Origin: an uncultured Bacilli bacterium
Lineage (GTDB): Bacteria; Bacillota_I; Bacilli_A; RF39; UBA660
DNA: 64,000 bases
NCBI GenBank assembly: GCA_934131175.1
Contig: CAKOZD010000004.1
Span: forward strand, 17,507 to 81,506
Direction: 5' to 3'
Shown here: in pieces, positions 13,109-64,000 of the stretch
Layout of the letters: each line of letters begins with the position of its first letter
How positions within the stretch are numbered: position 1 is the first letter of the stretch
Notes under the pieces: generated by a model
Databases searched by the model: none
Told to the model about the DNA's origin: nothing
The model's input: only the letters and a program-made list of their open reading frames with translations
Position numbers and translations under genes: made by a program

Positions 13109-14407
13109 TTATTTATTTAATTCTTTTAATAATTCGATAACTTTTCTAACTTCTAAATCATATTTAACCATTTCAAGTCCACCGAATTGATTTAAGAAAT
13201 CTTCTTTATCCATTTGATATTTCTTAGCTAATTCTTCAGCTTCTTTTTCAGCATCTTCATCACTTACAACAATTTTTTCGATTTGTTGAATTTCTTCAAT
13301 CATTAAACGATATAAAACATTGTTGAATGCTTCTTTTTCCATTTGACTTCTTAATTGTTCTTCATTTGAACCAGTGAATTGGTAATATAAATCTAAAGAG
13401 ATTCCTTGCATTTTCATTTGTTCAGCAAATCTTCCCATTAAACGATCAACTTCTTCATTAACCATTTCTTCTGGAATATCTACTTCAACGTTTTTAGAAA
13501 CTCCTTCAAGTAATGAATCTACATATTTGTTTTCAGCATCCATTTCTTTTTGTGCTTTAATGGATTCTTTAATTTCTGCTTTTAATTTATCTTCAGAATC
13601 GATTCCTTCCATTCCTAAATCTTCAAAGAAATCTTCATCTAATTCACGAGTTTTCTTTTCTTTTACTTCATTTACTTTAACTTTGAAAACAACTGGAGCT
13701 CCTGCTAAGTCTTTAGCACCATAATCTTCTGGGAAAGTTACATTTAAATCTTTCTCTTCTCCTGCTTTCATACCAATAACTTGTTCTTCAAATCCTGGAA
13801 TAAATGTATTTGAACCAATCTCTAATGAATAGTTTTCACCTTTTCCACCATCGAATGCTTCTCCATCTTTAAATCCTTCGAAGTCAATAATTGCTACATC
13901 ACCATTCTTAACTTCTCCATCTTTTGTTACAAGTTCAGTATATCTTTCTAATAAATGAGAAAGTTCATGATTTATTTCTTCATCAGTTACTTCTACTTCT
14001 TCTGGCTTAATATTTAAACCTTTGTATTTGTTAACTTTAACTTCTGGCTTAGTAATAATTTTGAAAGTAAATTCTACTCCTTCTTCACCAATGTTTTTTA
14101 AGTTTACTTCAGGTTGTACAACTGGTACTAATTTTGAATCATCCATTGCTTTTGCATATGCATCTTGTAATACTGCATCTGCTGCATCTAAATATAATGA
14201 TTCTTTACCAAATTTCTTTTCATAAATATTTCTTGGTACTTTACCTTGTCTAAATCCATCAACTTTTACAGTCTTTTGTTTTTTAGTAAATACTTTATCT
14301 ATAGCATTTTTCCAAGCGTCACCATCGATTTTTACAGTAACTTCATGTTTGTTTTTATTTTCTTTTTTTTCAGTTTTAATTTCTTTTGTTTCTTCTTTTT
14401 TTGCCAT
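13109..14407 (-). CDS. tig: Trigger factor (ribosome-associated PPIase chaperone)
   Basis: KVDGFRQGKVPRNIYEKKFG and the FKBP-type middle domain. Start set at MAKKEE, which has a ggaggg SD. Confidence 0.9.
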   Translation of the reverse strand: MAKKEETKEIKTEKKENKNKHEVTVKIDGDAWKNAIDKVFTKKQKTVKVDGFRQGKVPRNIYEKKFGKESLYLDAADAVLQDAYAKAMDDSKLVPVVQPEVNLKNIGEEGVEFTFKIITKPEVKVNKYKGLNIKPEEVEVTDEEINHELSHLLERYTELVTKDGEVKNGDVAIIDFEGFKDGEAFDGGKGENYSLEIGSNTFIPGFEEQVIGMKAGEEKDLNVTFPEDYGAKDLAGAPVVFKVKVNEVKEKKTRELDEDFFEDLGMEGIDSEDKLKAEIKESIKAQKEMDAENKYVDSLLEGVSKNVEVDIPEEMVNEEVDRLMGRFAEQMKMQGISLDLYYQFTGSNEEQLRSQMEKEAFNNVLYRLMIEEIQQIEKIVVSDEDAEKEAEELAKKYQMDKEDFLNQFGGLEMVKYDLEVRKVIELLKELNK

Positions 14408-52767: not shown

Positions 52768-53370
52768 ATGGCAATGATGAAAAATTATGAAGTAACATCT
52801 GGTGGTGGTCCTACCTTTAATAAACCTGCTTGTAGTGTTTCATATCCTTATAGTAGTGACACTAAAAATGCCGCTGATATTTCTAGTGTATGGGATTATA
52901 TAGATGGTATTTTATCAAATATTAGTTCTCTTTCTAATGATTTTGAAAGTATTAAAAGTAAAATTAAGAGTTTAGAAGACAACTGGAATAATTGTATTAT
53001 AATGAATGGAACTGGTACTGAGTATGTTTATGTCGATGATATAAATAGTGATATAACTAACTTTTCTTCTAAATGTGAAAGTGGTAAAGGTGAAGTTGAT
53101 GGAATATTTAGTGAATTTAGTGAAACAATAACTGAGATTAATGAGTATATGGATTTATTAAAAGAAAATTATCAATCTTATAAAAATCTTCAAAATAATC
53201 TTATTAGTGCATCATCTGAATTATCTGCTTTATCCATTTCTAATAATAATTCGATAAGTGCAACTAGAATAAGTGCTTTGAATTCAACTATTGCTAGTTT
53301 AAAGAATAAGATGAAAGATTACCAAGAAATTACTAGTATTGATTCATGTGGAAAGTGGGTTGAAAAATAA
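52768..53370 (+). CDS. Hypothetical helical protein (200 aa), first gene of a plus-strand islet
   Basis: Strong ggagg SD. S/N-rich sequence with coiled-coil character. No signal peptide. Confidence 0.5.
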   Translation: MAMMKNYEVTSGGGPTFNKPACSVSYPYSSDTKNAADISSVWDYIDGILSNISSLSNDFESIKSKIKSLEDNWNNCIIMNGTGTEYVYVDDINSDITNFSSKCESGKGEVDGIFSEFSETITEINEYMDLLKENYQSYKNLQNNLISASSELSALSISNNNSISATRISALNSTIASLKNKMKDYQEITSIDSCGKWVEK

Positions 53371-54692
53371 TGGCTGATAGTTTTAGTGTTAGTTATGATG
53401 AGAAGTTATATACTGCAGGAGAAAATGATTATAATAATATTAAAAGTTCACTTTCTACTATGATGGCTGATGTTAAAAATTACACTGATAAACTAAAAGA
53501 AATTGAAGGCTTTACTCCTTCTATTGTTTATGGTGGCGTATTACAAGATATGGTTGAAGGGATGAGTACTGCTTTAAGTAATTTAAGTGAAAAACTTGAA
53601 GTTAGTAGTACTATTGTTTCTAGAGCAAAACATATTGTTGAATTATATAATAATTCTGATTCTGATATGTCTGCTGATGTATGTAAATTTTTATTAGATA
53701 ATTTGAAAATGACTTATAAAAATAGTTTTGATTCTAATTTTAAAAATGGTACTGCATTAAAAACAGATCTTTATTATCAAGCAATTTTTGATAATGATTT
53801 CACCCCTCAAGGTATAACAATTGTCGGGAATAAAGTTATAATTTCTGCTTATAAAAAAGATGAATATTCAAGACTTTATATTTTTAATCCAGATAATAAT
53901 AGTTACTATATTGTTGGTCTTGATAATAAATCTCATGTTGGTGGAGTTAGTTATGATGAAGTAAATCATGTTTTATTAGTAACTGGTAGTAATGGTGCAG
54001 TAAATGCATATAACTATGATGCCATGGAGTCAATTGCTAGTAAGAGTACAAGTGAAAGTTATAATGGTAAAACTGTTATTTTAAATTTAGCGAATAATGC
54101 TGGTACAAAACAAAAAATAAAATTAGATTCTAATATTAATATGAATTATGAAAAAATGGCAAATGGAAATAAATTAACTGGTTATAATGCTGGGTCTGTT
54201 TATGTTGATACCAAGTCTAACCAAATATTTATTAATAGATTTGCAAAAGATGGAAAACTAGTTTATGGTGATTTAGTTTATGATAAAGATAAAGGAACAT
54301 ATACTATGAAGAATCCAAAGTCTATGGATATAGATAATGGGGTTCAAGGAGTTGCAACTTACCATAAAGATGGAAATACATATTTGGTAGAATCAAGGTC
54401 TTACGCTGGAACTAGTTCTCAAATAACTGTTAGAAATATTACTAATGGTAAAAATATTCTTGTTGGTACTAAAAAGTTCGATAATAAATATATGGAAAGT
54501 ATTCATGTAGACGAAAATGGAATTGGAACAGCAGTTTATGAAAATGGTACATTTAATCCATTTAATAAAAATGATTCTACAAGGTCATTTGATGTTAATG
54601 AGATAATTAAAGAAAATAATAAAGAAAGTGGAAATGTTATTATTATAACTAATAAATTTGAAAAAGGTGAACCTAATAAAGAAGGTTATTAA
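53370..54692 (+). CDS. Hypothetical 440-aa protein (helical N-terminal region plus a beta-rich C-terminal domain)
   Basis: Start overlaps the upstream stop (taATGg). No signal peptide. No recognised catalytic motif. Confidence 0.5.
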   Translation: MADSFSVSYDEKLYTAGENDYNNIKSSLSTMMADVKNYTDKLKEIEGFTPSIVYGGVLQDMVEGMSTALSNLSEKLEVSSTIVSRAKHIVELYNNSDSDMSADVCKFLLDNLKMTYKNSFDSNFKNGTALKTDLYYQAIFDNDFTPQGITIVGNKVIISAYKKDEYSRLYIFNPDNNSYYIVGLDNKSHVGGVSYDEVNHVLLVTGSNGAVNAYNYDAMESIASKSTSESYNGKTVILNLANNAGTKQKIKLDSNINMNYEKMANGNKLTGYNAGSVYVDTKSNQIFINRFAKDGKLVYGDLVYDKDKGTYTMKNPKSMDIDNGVQGVATYHKDGNTYLVESRSYAGTSSQITVRNITNGKNILVGTKKFDNKYMESIHVDENGIGTAVYENGTFNPFNKNDSTRSFDVNEIIKENNKESGNVIIITNKFEKGEPNKEGY

Positions 54693-54706
54693 GTTGGAGG
54701 AAAACT

Positions 54707-55258
54707 ATGAGAATAAGTAATTTTAAAAATTATGTCGATTGGAAAAATATTAAGAAAAAGTTTGCTTTAGTTGCTATTTCTGTTGCTATTGGTTCTATGG
54801 CCACTGGATGTAATCAGAATATAAATAGTCAAGATGTAAATAATAATAGTATTTATCAACAATTAAATGAAGAAAAATTAGATTCTAACACAACTGATAT
54901 AAATGATCGTGCTGATTATTATGAGAAGTATGTGGATGATAAAATAGATAAAATGTCTGAATCTGAAAAACTTAATTATTATGTAAATATTAAAGTAAAT
55001 TATAGTGGCAGAGAAAATTATAGTGGTGATGATATAATTTTTTTAAGAAATGACAATGTATATGAAGGAGATTTATATGATGGTGATGACTCTATTGGAC
55101 TACCTCCTGGTATATATAGAGTTATTTCTGAAAAAGTTGATGGACATCAAAGTAATTTTGGAGAAATTAGTATACTTACACCTGGAGAAGATGTTACTTT
55201 GAATGTTGATTATAATTCTTATAAAGCAAGTATTTCTAGTGATGAAAAGACAAAATAA
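54707..55258 (+). CDS. Putative lipoprotein
   Basis: ggagg SD. Signal peptide with a lipobox, ...AISVAIGSMATGC. D/Y/E-rich mature part. Confidence 0.55.
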   Translation: MRISNFKNYVDWKNIKKKFALVAISVAIGSMATGCNQNINSQDVNNNSIYQQLNEEKLDSNTTDINDRADYYEKYVDDKIDKMSESEKLNYYVNIKVNYSGRENYSGDDIIFLRNDNVYEGDLYDGDDSIGLPPGIYRVISEKVDGHQSNFGEISILTPGEDVTLNVDYNSYKASISSDEKTK

Positions 55259-55290
55259 AATATTGGAGTTGGTCCAATATTTTTTATTTT
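55257..55290. terminator. Bidirectional terminator between convergent genes
   Basis: aatattgg-agttggt-ccaatatt hairpin flanked by A/T runs. Confidence 0.55.
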
Positions 55291-55781
55291 ATATCTTTTA
55301 TGATAGTACCTTTTTTTACAATAGTTAATGTTGATTTACTAGGTATAAGAATATAACTGTCTCCTTCATTTCCATTTATATCTTTGTATGATTCTATTTC
55401 TACTGTAACTTTTTGATCATTATCAGTTTGACTAAGTACTGTATAATATGAATTATAATAACCATTTCTTTCATATACTTTTACTTCTTCACGATTAATT
55501 CTAACTGTTGGAATTTGTTTTAATTCTTTACTTACTTTAAACATCAAAGTAATAGTATTACCCTCTTCAGCATAATTTTCATTATAAATATTATCAGATT
55601 TTAATGTTACTTCTGTAATTTCTGGAGAAGTTTTGTCATTACTTGAATCTTTTGAGAATTTGTCAAACATAGATGTATTTTTATATAAAAAGAAAAGAAG
55701 AAATGCGATAAATAAAATTAATACAATTATAACTATAATATTAATAATGAGATTTTTTTTAGGATTAATTGTTTTAAACAT
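55284..55781 (-). CDS. Membrane-anchored hypothetical protein
   Basis: N-terminal TM helix, then an extracytoplasmic beta-rich domain. Confidence 0.4.
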   Translation of the reverse strand: MFKTINPKKNLIINIIVIIVLILFIAFLLFFLYKNTSMFDKFSKDSSNDKTSPEITEVTLKSDNIYNENYAEEGNTITLMFKVSKELKQIPTVRINREEVKVYERNGYYNSYYTVLSQTDNDQKVTVEIESYKDINGNEGDSYILIPSKSTLTIVKKGTIIKDIK

Positions 55782-55843
55782 AATATCTACCTTCTTATAT
55801 ATTTATGTTATCATTTTTATAGATTCTATACAAGAATGTTAAT

Positions 55844-58800
55844 TTATTTATTTAGTTTTATGTATTTTTTTACAAAGTCTGTATCTATTTTTGACATTGA
55901 TTCTTCTAATATTATCGGAAGATTTAAGTCATAGGCTTCATTTAAAAGTATCAGTTGAGCAAGACTTATTGACTCATATTTTCTTGCTAGTAAACTATCA
56001 AAATGTTCTTTGGTAATTATATCTTTTACTTGATACTCTCCACTATTTCCTGTTCCTCTTATTGGGTAACTTGTGTATCTAAAGTCATTTATTATTTCTT
56101 GTGGTAATATCAATTTTGTATCGTCAAATATTTGCATATTGTCATCTAAAATTATCGTTCCTGTTCTTTTGTAACTTTCATACACACTAGATGCAACTTT
56201 CGCAATACAAATGTAATGTGAACCATTTGTCCCAGCTCCACCTTGGTGATTACCATAATTTGAAGATGTAATTGCTCCATCTCTAAATACTGAATTTAAG
56301 TTTTCCATAGAACCTGTTGTATGAGAATAGTATGTATTAGGTATTTTATAATCGTGATTATTCAGAGTTTTTAAGTATTCCTCTATTTCTTGTTTATTAA
56401 TAGAGATGTTTCTTCTATCTAAAATATTTTCTATTTTATACTTTGGAATATAAATACTTTTTTTATTTTCTTTTATTTTTTCTTTTTCTTTTACATATTT
56501 TTTAGCCTCAGAAAATAATCTTTTATCGTTATCATTATAGAAAAAGTCAAAGCTATTATCTTTTTTTCTTCCTATAAACCAATCTTCTCCAATATAACCT
56601 GATTTATATTTATTTTCTAAGTAATGATATTTTATACTATTTTGCAAGCAATAATCATAGTATATAGAGTTTATTCTTTCTTCTAAAGTATCTTCATCTA
56701 TATCTTTAAATTCTTGTACTTTAGGTCTTTCATATAAATATATTGGCTCTACGTCATCTGTATCTAATTTATCACTATACTCTCCATATAATATTACTTG
56801 ATTTTCACTAGAATCTTTTAGATAAAGTTCTTCTTTGCTACTTGGTTTAAACATATTATTACTTAGACTTTTCAAAGGTTTTAGATTGTCTATATATTTA
56901 TTTTTTATATCTATTGGGTTTCTTCCTATAAGTACTAATTTTATTCCTTTATTTTTTTCTTGACGAGTTATTTCTGTTATTGTTTTAGCTGCTTGTAAGT
57001 ATATTTCATATATTGCTAATTCAGGGTCTTTTACTTTTTCTATTTCTTCTGTTAACTCAATATTGTCAAAGCAAAGTACGTCTCCACATCTCCATACCCA
57101 GCTATAAGCAACTATTTTTCCATTTCTTGTAATTTTAAAGAATCTTCCATTAGGATTTATTGCTCCATGGCGAAGACAAGTTTGTGCCTTACCATTTGGA
57201 GTTAGACAACTTGATGCTTTTTTATTATCAGGCAATAGATATTTTCCAATACCATTAGATATTATTTCTTTATCATGTAAATCAACTAATTGATAGTCTA
57301 AGTTATTATATTTACCACGACAATCTGGAATAGATGATTTTAGTCTTTTTCGATATTCTTCATAAAGTTTTATTCCATTTAATTTTTCTAAGAAAGGTTC
57401 TCCTTTTGCAACATAGTTTAATCTTTCTAGGTTTTCTTCAATGTGAACATTATATGGAACAAGTAATTTCTTTATTGATTTGATTACTTTATTAATATTA
57501 TTTAAAGTAGGCTTTTTCCCACTTACTAGTATTTTTTCAAATACAGAGATATAAGTTTCTAGTGAATAGTCTTCTAATATTTTATTCTTGTCTTCTTCTT
57601 TTAAATTTAGAATTAATTCTTTAAATGCTATATAAAAAGTATCAGACTTACCTTTTATATTATCAATTATTCCTTTCCAAGTATTAATATTATATTTTAT
57701 AAGTTTTACTGTTGCATCATAATCTAATAAATCTAAGGAAATTAATATGTATTCGTCAAGTTTATTATTTACTGATTTATCTATTAGCATGTGAGTATAA
57801 GACTTTAGAGCCTCATCAATGAAAATTTTTTTATTAGATTTTTCAATCACAATATTATTTACTATTTCTTTTATATTTCTATATTGCTTTACACTATACT
57901 TTTCTATACTATTTATATTTACCATTTCTGGATATTGTAATAAGTCATTTGTTTTATAATTATGGATTAAATTTTTTCTGTTTTTTATGTCTAATATTTT
58001 ATATATATTTTTATTTTGAATACCTCTTCTAAATATTCTTTCTAAATATTCTAAATCTTTATTTGTTAAAGTATCCTCATACTCTTTTAGAAATTCTTGT
58101 AAAAATAATTTAAAGCATAATAAAAACAAATAATTTTTCTTATTGTCATTATATGTTTCTTCTGATAAATGATTTATTGCGATTAAGTACTCATAACAAT
58201 AAATTGTATCTATTTTGTTTACATTTATTTTTTCTATATTAAAATTAGTTATATTATTTTCTTCTAGAAATTTTAAAAATGAATCTTGAAATGGTTTTAT
58301 CTTTTTAGGAGAGTCTTTAAAAGTAGGTTCTTCTTTTGTAATGATTTTTTTAAATATTTCTTTATTCTTAAGCAGTTTAATCCAAGTAGCTTTTGTTAGA
58401 CGATTTGTTAATTTTATGTTGTTTAATTCACTTGTTTTTAGTACATGTAATAAATCATCTACTTCATAGTTATTTTTTAAACAATTTTGAATTATGTTAA
58501 ATAAAGTAGCCTTATCTGTTTCAATCATTTGTCTATAATCAAATTTTTCTATCTTACCATATATATAATACTTTAAATCATCTTTAAAATATTTGTAAAA
58601 AATTTTTAATACATAGGGATTAACTTCACTCATTTTTGCTTCATAGTGCTTATCTTTATAGCGTGGTTTTACTTCCCATTCATTTATTTCCCAAATATCT
58701 GATAATTCATCAATATATCTAGATGGAACATAAAGAGTCTTTCTAATTTCTTTTCTTAATTTTTTATAGCTTCTCTTTATGATTTTTTCACATATATCAG

Positions 58801-59182
58801 GATTTTCCATATTCATACATAAATAAGCCAATTCTTCAGAAGACAATTTATCTTCGTATAATGTAAATATTTTATTAAAATAATTTTTTATTATATCTTC
58901 TTTAGTTATTCCATTAAAGCCCATTTTTATTCTATTTTTAATAGGTGAAAATTTATGTCTTTCTATATTAGTTTTTAAGTCAATAAAATAAAGAATATCT
59001 AAAAGTATTAATCTTATTCTTTCTGATGATAAGTCTGGTTTTTCATTAATTATTCTATCTAATTTATCAAGATATTTCTTATCTGGAACGTCTGTTTCTG
59101 AATATAATGTTGTTAGATAGTCTACAAACATCCCTTCTCTTTCAAATAGTCTTTCATCAAACATGTCTAGCAAAGATAACAC
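55844..59182 (-). CDS. Large (1112 aa) soluble protein of unknown function
   Basis: Long uninterrupted ORF with no TM helix. No P-loop, HExxH or other motif I can assign. The C-terminal region is Gly/Ser-rich (NYGNHQGGAGTNGSHY). Confidence 0.55.
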   Translation of the reverse strand: MLSLLDMFDERLFEREGMFVDYLTTLYSETDVPDKKYLDKLDRIINEKPDLSSERIRLILLDILYFIDLKTNIERHKFSPIKNRIKMGFNGITKEDIIKNYFNKIFTLYEDKLSSEELAYLCMNMENPDICEKIIKRSYKKLRKEIRKTLYVPSRYIDELSDIWEINEWEVKPRYKDKHYEAKMSEVNPYVLKIFYKYFKDDLKYYIYGKIEKFDYRQMIETDKATLFNIIQNCLKNNYEVDDLLHVLKTSELNNIKLTNRLTKATWIKLLKNKEIFKKIITKEEPTFKDSPKKIKPFQDSFLKFLEENNITNFNIEKINVNKIDTIYCYEYLIAINHLSEETYNDNKKNYLFLLCFKLFLQEFLKEYEDTLTNKDLEYLERIFRRGIQNKNIYKILDIKNRKNLIHNYKTNDLLQYPEMVNINSIEKYSVKQYRNIKEIVNNIVIEKSNKKIFIDEALKSYTHMLIDKSVNNKLDEYILISLDLLDYDATVKLIKYNINTWKGIIDNIKGKSDTFYIAFKELILNLKEEDKNKILEDYSLETYISVFEKILVSGKKPTLNNINKVIKSIKKLLVPYNVHIEENLERLNYVAKGEPFLEKLNGIKLYEEYRKRLKSSIPDCRGKYNNLDYQLVDLHDKEIISNGIGKYLLPDNKKASSCLTPNGKAQTCLRHGAINPNGRFFKITRNGKIVAYSWVWRCGDVLCFDNIELTEEIEKVKDPELAIYEIYLQAAKTITEITRQEKNKGIKLVLIGRNPIDIKNKYIDNLKPLKSLSNNMFKPSSKEELYLKDSSENQVILYGEYSDKLDTDDVEPIYLYERPKVQEFKDIDEDTLEERINSIYYDYCLQNSIKYHYLENKYKSGYIGEDWFIGRKKDNSFDFFYNDNDKRLFSEAKKYVKEKEKIKENKKSIYIPKYKIENILDRRNISINKQEIEEYLKTLNNHDYKIPNTYYSHTTGSMENLNSVFRDGAITSSNYGNHQGGAGTNGSHYICIAKVASSVYESYKRTGTIILDDNMQIFDDTKLILPQEIINDFRYTSYPIRGTGNSGEYQVKDIITKEHFDSLLARKYESISLAQLILLNEAYDLNLPIILEESMSKIDTDFVKKYIKLNK

Positions 59183-59195
59183 CCCCTTAGCTATA

Positions 59196-60590
59196 TTATT
59201 TCTTTTTTACTTTATTTTTCTTAGTAGTTGAACTTTTAATAACATCCCATAGTTCGTCACTTTCAAAAACTCCTAGTGTTTCTAAATCTAATATTTCTTT
59301 TATTACTGCTTCTAATTTTAATCTTTTTTTACTTAATATATCTTTCTTTTTACTTAATATTATTTTTTTATTTTGTTCTATAATTGCTTTTAATTCTTTA
59401 TTTTTTAATTTTTTATATTCAACCTTATTAATTTCAATACCTATTTTTCCTAATAATTCTTCTTGCTCTTTTGTTTCTGCTATTAATGATAATAATTTAT
59501 TTTCAAAATTTTCTAATTGTTTTGTAAGAGTTTCTTTATCATTTTCTTTTAAGCTAGATATTTCAGTAACAAAAATATCTTTGTTTTCTAATGTTAGTTC
59601 TGTCTTTATTTTATTTTCTAAGTCTTGTACTTTCAAGTTATATTTTTCTATTATTTGTTTTATTAACTCTATTTCATCTTTAAAATCATAATCATTTAAA
59701 ACAGCAATCAAATTATTTAAACCATCTATATTATTTTTGCTAGTTAATATATTTATTTCTTTAGCAAATACTTTTCTTAATAAAGTATTATATTTGTCCC
59801 ATATTAATTCAAATTCATTTTCTGTATTTTTAAGTATTGATTTTTTCATTAAAATAGCATTTAAGTTACTTTTTAATTCATAAATTTTTTCTTTATTTTC
59901 AACTAAGTAAGTTATATCAATCTTGTCAATTAATTTTTCTAATTCTTTTTTTAATATTTCTTCTTGCTTTATAATGTCTTCTAATGTTAAATTACCAATT
60001 TCTAGTTTACTTTCTAATGCTTGTTCTTCATTTGATAATCTATTAAACCATTCTTCGTTTGTATTTTTTGCTTCTTCTTTATATAACTTTAAAGCATCCT
60101 TTAAAGAATTATTGCCATTATCGGTACACGAAATATCAAATTCTTTTCCTAGAGCGTCTATTATTGGAATAATTTTACCAGTATATATTTCACTAGCAAT
60201 TGCTGTATGAACAATACTATCTCCATCATCATCTTTTGTATTTACATCTAGATTATATTTTTTTGCAAGAGCAATTAATTTTAATATGAATTCTTGTGAA
60301 TACGAATGGTCTTCTCCATCTTTATCAGTATATCCATATAAGGCTAGTTGAATAAAATTATAGCCTGTTCTTTCACCTTTATAGTTTACATCATAACCAT
60401 TTTCTAAAAGTAAATTAACAAACTTTAATACTTTTTCTTCATCAAATTTATTTTGAACAGAAGCATGTAATAAATTACCATATTCATTTTTATCTTTTTT
60501 ATTAAATCTTTTTGTAATTTCTTCATAAGTTATTTTCTCTATTGGTAATTCAAAAAAATTTATTACTGCTTCATTTAGTTCAGTTTGCAT
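59196..60590 (-). CDS. Ankyrin-repeat plus long coiled-coil protein with a Lys-rich C-terminal tail
   Basis: Ankyrin-like units (LLENGYDVNYKGERTGYNFIQLAL...; NTKDDDGDSIVHTAIAS...). About 250 aa of heptad-like E/K/L sequence. C-terminus ends in KKNKVKKK. 14-nt gap to the 1112-aa gene. Confidence 0.55.
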   Translation of the reverse strand: MQTELNEAVINFFELPIEKITYEEITKRFNKKDKNEYGNLLHASVQNKFDEEKVLKFVNLLLENGYDVNYKGERTGYNFIQLALYGYTDKDGEDHSYSQEFILKLIALAKKYNLDVNTKDDDGDSIVHTAIASEIYTGKIIPIIDALGKEFDISCTDNGNNSLKDALKLYKEEAKNTNEEWFNRLSNEEQALESKLEIGNLTLEDIIKQEEILKKELEKLIDKIDITYLVENKEKIYELKSNLNAILMKKSILKNTENEFELIWDKYNTLLRKVFAKEINILTSKNNIDGLNNLIAVLNDYDFKDEIELIKQIIEKYNLKVQDLENKIKTELTLENKDIFVTEISSLKENDKETLTKQLENFENKLLSLIAETKEQEELLGKIGIEINKVEYKKLKNKELKAIIEQNKKIILSKKKDILSKKRLKLEAVIKEILDLETLGVFESDELWDVIKSSTTKKNKVKKK

Positions 60591-60688
60591 ATTATCACCC
60601 GTTTTCGGATGTATTATAGCATAATTTCAAAAGAAAAAGAAGTAAACTTTGTGAATACCTCTTTATATTTGTTTTTTAAATTTTAATA

Positions 60689-62448: not shown

Positions 62449-64000
62449 TTATTTTGTCAACTCAGCTAATTTTTGTTTTTCTTCAGCAAGTTTTTGTCTA
62501 TCCATTTCTACTATGTTTGCTGGTGCCTTATTAACATAATTTTCGTTTGATAATAATTTTTCACGTCTTGCAATAGATGACTTTAATTGTTCTATTTGAG
62601 CTTCTTTTTGAGCAATATCTGCTTCTGTTTCAATCTTTTCAAAGAATATTTGAGCCTTTATTCTATTAGAGAACACTTTATAAGCTTTAATTCCTAAAGG
62701 TTCATTTACTAGATTATCTTGAAGCTTTAACATTTTAACGATAAGTTCATTATCATCTTCTGTATCAAACATTACTTTCATATCTTTTGTAATATTATTT
62801 TCTGCTTTAACATTTCTGAATGTTTTAATAAATTCTATTTGATCATCTACTATTTCTTCTTCTTTCTCAAATACAAATTTCTTTGAGTATTTTGGATAAC
62901 TTGAAATCATTATTGATTCTTGTTCTTTTACTGGTAACATTTGATATATTTCTTCTGTTACGTATGGCATAAATGGATGAAGTAATTTTAATATTCCTGT
63001 TAATATTGTACATAATACTGATTGGGTAGTTTCATCTTCACTAGTGTACTTTGCCATTTCAATATAGTAGTCACAGAAATAGTTCCATGTAAAGTCATAG
63101 ATTGCTGTTCCAGCATTATTAAATTGGAATTTATCCATGAACTTCTTTACTTCATGAATAGTTTTTTCATATTTTGTTAAAATCCATTTATCTTCTGGTT
63201 TTAAATTATCTAATTTTATTTCTTTTAAGTTTTCAATATTCATTAATGTAAAACGTGATGCATTCCATAATTTATTTATGAAGTTCCATGTTGCTTTTAT
63301 TTTATCTTCATCAAATTTCATGTCTGTTCCTGCTGCTACATCTGTTGATAAATAATATCTTAATGAGTCTGCACCATATTTTTCAATCATATCAAATGGA
63401 TCAATTCCATTTCCTAAACTCTTTGAGAATTTTCTTCCTTGTTTATCTCTAATAAGTCCATGGATTAGACAATGTTCAAATGGTCTTTTTCCTAGTAATT
63501 CTTCTCCTTGGAATGTCATTCTATTAACCCAGAATGGAATGATATCATATCCTGTTACTAAAACATTATTTGGATAGTATCTTTCTACCATTTCATTTTG
63601 TTCTGGCCAACCTAGCGTTGCGAATGGCCATAGTGCACTAGAGAACCATGTGTCTAATACGTCTTCATCTTGCTTCCATCCTTCACCTTCTGGAGCTTCC
63701 ATTCCAACATATACTTCTTCTCCTCTATACCAAGCAGGAATTCTGTGTCCCCACCATAATTGTCTTGAAATACACCAGTCATATGTTATTTCCATCCAAT
63801 GATTCATTGTTTTTTCATAACGAGTTGGTACAAAGTGAACTTTTGTATCTTTATCTTTTTGATTTTCTAAAACTTTATCAGCTAATGGTTTCATTTTTAC
63901 AAACCATTGTTTTTTTATCATTGGTTCTACCATTACACCTGTTCTTTCACTATGTCCTACTTCATGAACGATTGGTTCTACTTCTAATAATAAACCAGCT
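62449..64000 (-). CDS. valS: Valyl-tRNA synthetase, C-terminal two-thirds. The gene start lies beyond the window end.
   Basis: KFSKSLGN (KMSKS) motif, an anticodon-binding region, and a C-terminal coiled coil. The frame stays open to position 64000. Confidence 0.85.
   Translation of the reverse strand, partial: AGLLLEVEPIVHEVGHSERTGVMVEPMIKKQWFVKMKPLADKVLENQKDKDTKVHFVPTRYEKTMNHWMEITYDWCISRQLWWGHRIPAWYRGEEVYVGMEAPEGEGWKQDEDVLDTWFSSALWPFATLGWPEQNEMVERYYPNNVLVTGYDIIPFWVNRMTFQGEELLGKRPFEHCLIHGLIRDKQGRKFSKSLGNGIDPFDMIEKYGADSLRYYLSTDVAAGTDMKFDEDKIKATWNFINKLWNASRFTLMNIENLKEIKLDNLKPEDKWILTKYEKTIHEVKKFMDKFQFNNAGTAIYDFTWNYFCDYYIEMAKYTSEDETTQSVLCTILTGILKLLHPFMPYVTEEIYQMLPVKEQESIMISSYPKYSKKFVFEKEEEIVDDQIEFIKTFRNVKAENNITKDMKVMFDTEDDNELIVKMLKLQDNLVNEPLGIKAYKVFSNRIKAQIFFEKIETEADIAQKEAQIEQLKSSIARREKLLSNENYVNKAPANIVEMDRQKLAEEKQKLAELTK

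Follow-up and report, generated by a model that had tools for sequence, protein, structure and literature searches.

What might two adjacent genes do that are carried by some genomes of uncultured gut Bacilli and are missing from the same site in others? The question is raised by a stretch of 64,000 nt (the window in all that follows) from an uncultured Bacilli bacterium (GCA_934131175.1, contig CAKOZD010000004.1, positions 17,507 to 81,506), in which a gene for a 464-residue ankyrin and coiled-coil protein (59196..60590, minus strand, ATG start), here called the partner, is followed by a large gene (55844..59182, minus strand) whose longest open reading frame (ORF) starts at a GTG and encodes 1112 residues. 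An earlier note on this DNA, drawn from the sequence by itself, had reported ORFs of 464 and 1112 residues located between rel and lemA, and both the ORFs (the latter as the longest one) and the location are correct; the gap between them, which it put at 14 nt, counts to 13. No source names either protein, and literature searches gave no description of the pair. The two genes form a co-inherited, co-diverging unit that is dispensable and strain-variable at a rearrangement hotspot, and the reading tentatively favoured here is that of an accessory conflict-type module made of an enzymatic effector and an ankyrin partner that would bind it, either to restrain or to sense it.

The distribution of the pair was scanned in one genome per species across 185,579 species, which yielded 94 related stretches. 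About 25 of these were full-length, all from uncultured low-GC Bacilli and patchy in occurrence; their hosts are labelled ‘Bacilli’, ‘Tenericutes’, ‘Mycoplasmatota’ or Candidatus Faecimonas, the few loci labelled Muribaculaceae are probably mis-binned, and names such as Mycoplasma sp. CAG:877 suggest RF39-like host lineages. A partner homologue (53 were found) stands directly upstream of every full-length large gene for which upstream DNA was available (L001 to L025), and the adjacency is kept in ∼25 species, down to 34% identity. Of the loci, 23 have the partner upstream; the exceptions are L026 and L027, two distant loci in which the order is reversed and a partner of the same three-part architecture directly follows the large gene. 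The spacing in the window is 13 nt to the GTG (13–22 nt counting the choice of start), the intervening sequence being TAA-tatagctaAGGGGGtgttatcTTG, and the two genes abut in L003. Additionally, divergence of the two proteins tracks from locus to locus (e.g., 60/57%, 47/52%, and 37/36% identity), which, with the adjacency in all loci with upstream DNA, bears out the two-gene unit proposed in the earlier note.

Close relatives for comparison of the site were found through rel. In L088, whose large protein is 89% identical, the gene order is kinase, hydrolase, partner and large gene, a 165-residue transmembrane (TM) gene, a gene islet, and rel; in L093 it is kinase, hydrolase, 99 nt, the 165-residue TM gene, the islet, and rel, with the pair absent. 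L093 matches L088 up to L088 position 8532 and resumes at 13293, the flanks being 95–96% identical, and the empty-site junction reads GTTTAC|ATAAATAAGTTAAC. In the window, homology to L088 begins at 60650 and homology to L093 resumes at 55854, and the block that is present or absent, approximately 55855..60641 (minus strand), comprises a candidate promoter, the partner gene, and the large gene. L092, which has the empty junction, and L094 lack the pair as well. Thus, the variable region of the earlier note contains a clean 4.79-kb indel with an empty site in L093, and the pair is far from universally conserved in synteny, since relatives lack it. The flanking genes differ in every lineage as well, which is weak evidence alone at 50–60% protein identity.

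A natural disruption is found in the P0006-carrying species, where a Tn916-like integrative and conjugative element (ICE), with genes for two DUF961 proteins, FtsK/SpoIIIE, Rep_trans, and AAA_10, stands, in at least 10 contigs, in place of the partner and of the large gene's 5′ half, what is left being a C-terminal ORF of 602 residues (L095:1-7809, L096:1-7809). Given this disruption and the clean empty site of L093, the pair is dispensable. It could then be asked whether the cassette is a decaying mobile-element remnant without current function, as the disruption of the large gene by an ICE in some genomes, the truncated forms of 586–1026 residues, and the split ORFs of two loci would allow; in these metagenome-assembled genomes the large gene is divided into ORFs of 219 and 856 residues (L019:4868-8091) and of 372 and 97 residues (L022:573-1932), the splits being either pseudogenisation or assembly frameshifts in homopolymer-rich DNA. 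Such a remnant is very improbable, however, because full-length ORFs of ∼1040–1120 residues (1232–1305 in L026/L027, the most distant loci) are kept from 100% to ∼30% identity, dozens of polar residues are invariant, the partner co-diverges, and the AlphaFold model is compact and confident, a conservation pattern that indicates purifying selection on the large gene and on the pair.

In phmmer and profile searches, the large protein returned nothing from Pfam, PADLOC, NCBIfam, or the PDB sequences, and seven distant relatives, including five central-domain proteins, had no Pfam domain. A word-indexed search recovered 15 full-length relatives (52–100% identity), and an exhaustive HMMER profile search of 1.84 billion representatives recovered 392 proteins at E < 1e-3. 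About 45 of the 392 are collinear full-length relatives (representatives at 50% clustering), and the rest have only a core, residues ∼590–720 and in many to ∼890, within proteins of 700–1900 residues. This coverage pattern divides the large protein into three modules, ∼20–570, ∼590–900, and 925–1112. All three are collinear over the full length in the ∼45 representatives, with a C-terminal end that is not polymorphic, and the domain at 925–1112 is confined to the full-length family. The N-terminal module (residues ∼20–570; 57473..59125, minus strand) is all-alpha in AlphaFold model 1, being almost wholly helical with a predicted local distance difference test score (pLDDT) mostly of 70–93, and matched nothing in the PDB by sequence or by fold; in L026 and L027 the profile match starts only at ∼position 320–340, so their first ∼480–550 residues do not match this module. 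Model 1 covers the full length from 15 close homologues, with a pLDDT of 61 and an unusable C-terminal half; model 2 covers residues 570–1112 from 69 diverse sequences, with a pLDDT of 93.3 and a predicted template modelling score (pTM) of 0.89.

The central module (residues ∼590–900; 56483..57415, minus strand) is, by model 2 and Foldseek, GNAT-like at fold level only. The best 50 PDB matches of model 2 are all GNATs, among them Gcn5, PaiA, RimI, TacT, AtaT, and VipF (E 2e-4 to 7e-3, probability 0.85–1.0, TM-scores 0.36–0.53), and the sole PDB fold matches of the poor model 1 are also GNAT acetyltransferases. No Pfam Acetyltransf_* or NCBIfam match was obtained for the large protein or the seven distant relatives. 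The earlier note had called the large protein unassignable and without signature, which is true of its sequence but not of its model; the structure prediction proposed there gives a GNAT-like fold for ∼590–900, with the sequence libraries empty. A BFVD search of model 2 returned GNATs and one uncharacterised phage protein at E 4.7e-9. This protein, A0A7G9A3X2 (656 residues, ‘Bacteriophage sp.’), is the best structural match of model 2 (271 columns, 17% identity), far exceeds any characterised GNAT for the modelled residues 570–1112, and may share an extended central module.

Conservation within the central module is enzyme-like. Across ∼150 homologues, R613, P619, C659, R680, S694, W695, W697, R698, C704, D706, and E709 are invariant and H672 is near-invariant (91%), and many invariant polar residues of the large protein persist to ∼25% identity. 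D706 and E709 are located on predicted strand beta4, and beta4 carries the general base in Gcn5-type GNATs; a conserved insert with Cys659 and His672 lies near the substrate cleft of the modelled module. The loop after predicted beta4 (residues 702–710, VLCFDNIEL) is TEEIEKVKDPE, there is no conserved Gly-containing loop, and acetyl-CoA motif A (Q/R-x-x-G-x-G/A), judged from the alignment, is absent after beta4. These features suggest an active transferase-like site with a non-canonical donor: as the canonical loop is missing, the donor may not be acetyl-CoA.

The same core occurs, within this group of bacteria, in paralogues that share a GNAT-like region of ∼140–300 residues and the same invariant signature (Cys, Arg, Ser-Trp-x-Trp-Arg, Cys-Phe-Asp-Asn-x-Glu). 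Unlike the large protein, they lack the 925–1112 module and the ankyrin partner and have other N-termini and another conserved neighbour; they are equally uncharacterised and without Pfam matches. In 16 loci (L035, L036, L038, L043, L050–L052, L055, and others), core-only paralogues of 573–1630 residues, mostly 1100–1630, consistently precede an aldehyde-dehydrogenase-like (ALDH-like) protein of ∼330–345 residues (partial PF00171, E 6e-9 in L051), and these genes adjoin SMC, PheT, or RecX genes. The paralogue and the ALDH-like gene make up a further conserved pair around this core.

The C-terminal module (residues 925–1112; 55847..56410, minus strand) is an alpha/beta domain covered by an alignment of 37 sequences reaching ∼20% identity (A4) and by model 2, where its pLDDT exceeds 90. 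H954, I971, N986, E1049, and I1056 are invariant, and G987, R1042, V1052, and P1089 are near-invariant; position 990 is Tyr, Phe, or His, aromatic in most members yet variable. In model 2, H954 ends a strand that is followed by a helix, and E1049 begins a later strand. Judged by eye, the local patterns (YYSHTT…NLNSVFRDGAITS, NGSHYICIAK, and GEYQVKD) recall the H…Y…E signature of PARP- and DarT-type ADP-ribosyltransferases (ARTs), which is a lead, not a result, and the predicted order of strands and helices would be compatible with the ART split beta-sheet fold. Profile alignments by hhalign placed E1049 onto the catalytic E160 of DarT (three structures; E 0.054, probability 1%) and H954 onto H862 of the PARP1 catalytic fragment (E 0.22), both non-significant. 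Among the 37 members, Pfam gave one DarT match (E 0.047) and no recurrent family, and no PHROGs or NCBIfam family was matched; hhalign against the ART domain of L092 (described below) gave nothing, the C-terminal profile found nothing relevant in the PDB (best, T7 gp12 at E 0.57), one distant member found nothing in the PDB, and a word-indexed search with the profile returned family fragments only. No ART appears in the best 50 Foldseek matches of the whole of model 2 from the PDB or BFVD, lists that are saturated with GNAT matches to the central module. As no sequence or profile similarity to any ART family is significant, the module is not assigned as an ART.

Other folds were considered by eye for the C-terminal module and set aside: a 2H phosphoesterase (only one HxT motif), a macrodomain (Gly-rich loop not conserved), and a caspase-like or LD-transpeptidase-like His-Cys enzyme (misfit in spacing and predicted secondary structure). 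One alternative to an ART-like domain is kept, a nucleophile-based Ser/Cys-His-Glu hydrolase, because position 973 (codon at window ∼56264-56266) alternates: most members have Ser, and Cys is found in a distant subgroup in which H954 and E1049 are retained. Such a pattern is what a catalytic nucleophile typically shows, and it sits awkwardly with an ART.

The ankyrin repeats of the partner are confirmed by a significant profile match. The partner alone falls below threshold against Pfam Ank_4 (E 3.5e-4, 21.3 vs. a threshold of 22.7 bits), and its single-sequence search of the PDB returned almost only designed ankyrins (DARPins) or the ankyrin domain of RNase L; the profile built from 30 homologues (A6) matches 128 ankyrin and DARPin sequences in the PDB (best E 2e-10), and several homologues have precomputed Pfam Ank_4 or Ank_2 matches. 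The repeats, which the earlier note had placed at the N-terminus, are thereby assigned to residues ∼38–170 (60081..60479, minus strand). They are followed by a region (residues 176–445; 59256..60065, minus strand) with zero proline, 59% K/L/E/I, and a hydrophobic autocorrelation clearly positive at lag 7 only, in which homologues tolerate insertions of 57 and 75 residues and vary in length. The earlier note had seen ∼250 residues of coiled coil here; composition and lag-7 periodicity agree, and the region is probably a helical rod or coiled coil. The protein ends in a basic tail (…TTKKNKVKKK; 59199..59255, minus strand; 37% Lys), also described in the earlier note, that is kept in homologues, including those of the reversed-order loci L026 and L027.

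Conflict-type genes lie close to the site in some genomes. In L092, one gene encodes a 1569-residue, repeat-rich protein that carries an ADP-ribosyltransferase domain, PF03496, at its C-terminus (E 3e-17), and the next encodes a 360-residue PF03747 glycohydrolase (E 1e-68; L092:66-5991); from their domains, the two are a classical toxin–immunity cassette of an ART and an ADP-ribosylglycohydrolase. These genes replace the 5′ part of the hydrolase gene, ∼370 nt upstream of the empty junction, and map to DNA just past window ∼60650. In L089, Fic, KilA-N, and WYL genes are nearby.

The favoured reading of a conflict-type module draws on the obligate pairing with correlated divergence and accessory status, on these conflict-type neighbours in some genomes, and on the enzyme-like character of the large protein (the GNAT-like model and the invariant polar residues), together with the precedent of Imm-ank, the ankyrin-repeat proteins catalogued among the immunity proteins of polymorphic toxins (PMC3482391). 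Such a system would be toxin–antitoxin-like, abortive-defence-like, or effector–immunity-like. The large cytoplasmic protein would be the effector. Its N-terminal module is helical, its central one resembles a GNAT-fold transferase, and its C-terminal alpha/beta module has an invariant arrangement of His, Asn-Gly, Arg, and Glu that looks like another active site, one that may use NAD+ in the manner of an ART. The partner would be translated from the shared transcript and would hold the effector in its ankyrin groove, so as to keep it inactive or to act as its sensor, and its coiled coil and basic tail could provide oligomerisation or anchoring to nucleic acid or membrane. A physical interaction, catalysis with its donors and targets, and the conflict role itself are what we infer for the pair.

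Other results weigh against this reading. Neither protein matches PADLOC-DB v2 at E ≤ 0.01, and neither matches a Pfam or NCBIfam model above threshold. INPHARED phages, PLSDB plasmids, and IMG/VR yielded no homologue. Across 17 loci, the 82 neighbour proteins are mostly housekeeping (iPGM, IF3, P-type ATPases, SMC, GluRS, and sortase/pilin) and no defence-gene neighbourhood recurs; the PADLOC matches among the 82 are generic (Fic in one lineage, kinase, and ABC/ATPase models). The defence-island context suggested in the earlier note thus fails the neighbourhood check that it proposed. The large protein is not a classical polymorphic toxin, as it is collinear and lacks C-terminal swapping, a secretion signal, LXG/WXG, and TM segments, and the core domain family is not intrinsically conflict-related, since its paralogues occur in housekeeping contexts with a different partner. 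The missing acetyl-CoA motif, the non-significant DarT and PARP1 alignments, and the ART-free Foldseek matches, all given above, count on the same side.

Several of these results would suit the main rival, a lineage-specific, dispensable enzyme outside any conflict that acylates or otherwise modifies a protein, an envelope precursor, or a nucleic acid, with the partner as scaffold or regulator and the whole serving as a niche trait. The predominantly housekeeping neighbours, the membership of the core in a larger family of 700–1900-residue proteins with one subfamily paired with an ALDH-like protein of ∼335 residues, the lack of flanking mobile-element genes around the cassette in the window, and a cassette GC content equal to that of the genome all speak for it. 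It is nevertheless considered somewhat unlikely: the clean empty site and ICE disruption show the pair to be dispensable, its occurrence is patchy (∼25 full-length loci among 185,579 species), and an ankyrin/coiled-coil partner is, as general knowledge, atypical of bacterial metabolic enzymes.

The ankyrin repeats themselves bring in another rival, an exported interbacterial or host-directed effector with an ankyrin immunity protein or chaperone, or with a co-travelling eukaryote-like adaptor, using an unrecognised export route. Immunity proteins are known to use ankyrin repeats, which are common in host-directed effectors too (PMC3482391), the toxin–immunity cassette of L092 lies at almost the same hotspot, and L026 and L027 have the ankyrin gene after the large gene, as is usual for a toxin and its immunity gene. 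In most loci, however, it is the putative immunity gene that leads. No signal peptide, TM segment, LXG/WXG, RHS, or other domain for trafficking is present in either protein, the toxin end shows no polymorphism, conservation being collinear over the full length, and no secretion-system genes adjoin the pair in the window region examined. This reading is accordingly held to be improbable.

The favoured conflict-type module may also be put in a more specific form, in which the pair would be an undescribed anti-phage or addiction system of a two-centre effector and an ankyrin/coiled-coil sensor-inhibitor, and the GNAT-like core would define a new family of enzymes, widespread among gut Bacilli with reduced genomes. 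The two centres proposed would be a GNAT-fold transferase without the CoA motif and a cryptic His/Glu domain, possibly NAD+-dependent. In this full form the proposal is unlikely.

Compared with characterised systems, the families are uncharacterised, and their arrangement resembles known enzyme-plus-inhibitor accessory modules but matches none. The GNAT toxins of TacT/TacA and AtaT/AtaR share a GNAT-like fold with the large protein (TacT3, 7ak9, and AtaT, 7chd; Foldseek E ∼3–5e-3), a partner gene directly upstream in one operon, and an accessory locus; the likeness to type II toxin–antitoxin systems is thus an analogy drawn from the operon-like arrangement and co-divergence. Those toxins, however, are single-domain proteins of ∼170 residues that have the acetyl-CoA motif and are paired with a small antitoxin that binds DNA, whereas here the GNAT-like module lies inside a three-module protein of 1100 residues, lacks the Q/RxxGxG/A loop and any Pfam acetyltransferase match, and is accompanied by a 464-residue ankyrin/coiled-coil partner. 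An ankyrin protein encoded beside a potentially harmful enzyme is likewise known from Imm-ank, the ankyrin-type Tli of type VI secretion, and Bdellovibrio Bd3460, ankyrin proteins being catalogued or described as factors of immunity or self-protection (PMC3482391; PMC4686830; bioRxiv 10.1101/2023.03.28.534661). The ankyrin partners of those systems guard against secreted or periplasmic enzymes (e.g., nucleases, lipases, and peptidoglycan endopeptidases), whereas both proteins here are without export signals; the partner here also has an extra helical rod of ∼270 residues and a basic tail and usually precedes the enzyme gene.

DarTG, CmdTAC, and pairs of an ART with an ADP-ribosylglycohydrolase (e.g., that of L092) are likewise accessory operons, in which a transferase that uses a nucleotide is encoded with a partner that neutralises it. 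In the C-terminal module, an invariant His closes one predicted strand and an invariant Glu opens a later one, and only non-significant alignments set these on PARP1 H862 and DarT E160; in contrast, the partner belongs to none of the macrodomain, glycohydrolase, or chaperone types, and membership in this group is not established. Polymorphic toxin systems differ in that the present pair has no trafficking domain and no variable toxin end and the partner is mostly upstream.

Human and animal guts commonly harbour uncultured low-GC Bacilli, which are almost unstudied experimentally, and the pair is a tractable entry to them: it is compact, has natural presence/absence alleles, a confident model, and a short list of invariant residues, and is uncovered by annotation. 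If the conflict-type module is true, it would add an ankyrin-controlled, dual-domain effector architecture to bacterial immune and addiction systems and give a first function to a GNAT-like domain family of at least ∼390 representative clusters; if the large protein is a physiological modifier instead, it would still define a new enzyme family.

Expression signals were read directly from the window. An extended −10 promoter-like element, TGcTATAAT (60613..60621, minus strand), may drive the pair, and a ribosome-binding site, GGGTGA (60595-60600, minus strand), lies ahead of the partner ATG at 60590; the candidate promoter falls inside the indel, so the cassette would carry its own promoter. 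The GTG of the large gene overlaps the Shine-Dalgarno sequence AAGGGGG, and a TTG at 59173, 7 nt past AAGGGGG, is the start in public gene calls (P0001, 1109 residues); for both reasons, the TTG is the likelier start and 1109 residues the likelier length. The window has a GC content of ∼25% throughout, equal for cassette and genome. In DNA of this composition, a consensus scan for promoters and terminators was uninformative (49 sites found vs. 54 expected), and it gave no terminator-like site between the two genes or after the large gene. Neither protein contains a TM-like or signal-like segment (maximum Kyte-Doolittle score over 19 residues, 1.23), in keeping with the soluble large protein described in the earlier note.

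No mobile-element genes flank the cassette in the window, and the hotspot illustrates cassette exchange in small genomes without obvious mobile-element genes. The lemA-side flank of the window diverges from the hydrolase-side flank of L088 9 nt outside the cassette boundary, at AAAGTTTAC. An octamer just past the right boundary, AAGTTAAC (ATTAAC in the window), resembles AAAGTTTAC (window 60642-60650 and 55838-55854); the similarity does not go beyond chance for AT-rich DNA, but the breakpoints coincide. End repeats were also considered as an att site, but AAGTTTAC at the left end and AAGTTAAC near the right end match at 18 of 30 positions, within AT-rich chance.

The earlier note had placed the pair and a plus-strand islet in one accessory region of ∼8 kb. 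The variability holds, but the single region does not, there being at least two independent indels: the islet is present without the pair in L092 and L093, also present in L088, and absent in L022 (which has the pair) and L094. As islet and pair occur independently, the 8-kb region is a mosaic of separate indels. The islet (window 52768-55258, plus strand) encodes a 200-residue coiled-coil protein, a 440-residue protein, and a 183-residue lipoprotein-like protein (MATGC). The 165-residue single-TM gene beside it (window 55284-55781, minus strand) is kept in L088, L092, L093, L022, and L094; no family could be assigned to it or to the three islet proteins. In DNA that would lie past window position 64000, a few kb after leuS, two genes for DUF4176 proteins, a family which we take to be linked to type VII secretion, flank genes for proteins of 143 and 432 residues without assignment (L001:516-2957), and this group may be another small accessory cluster.

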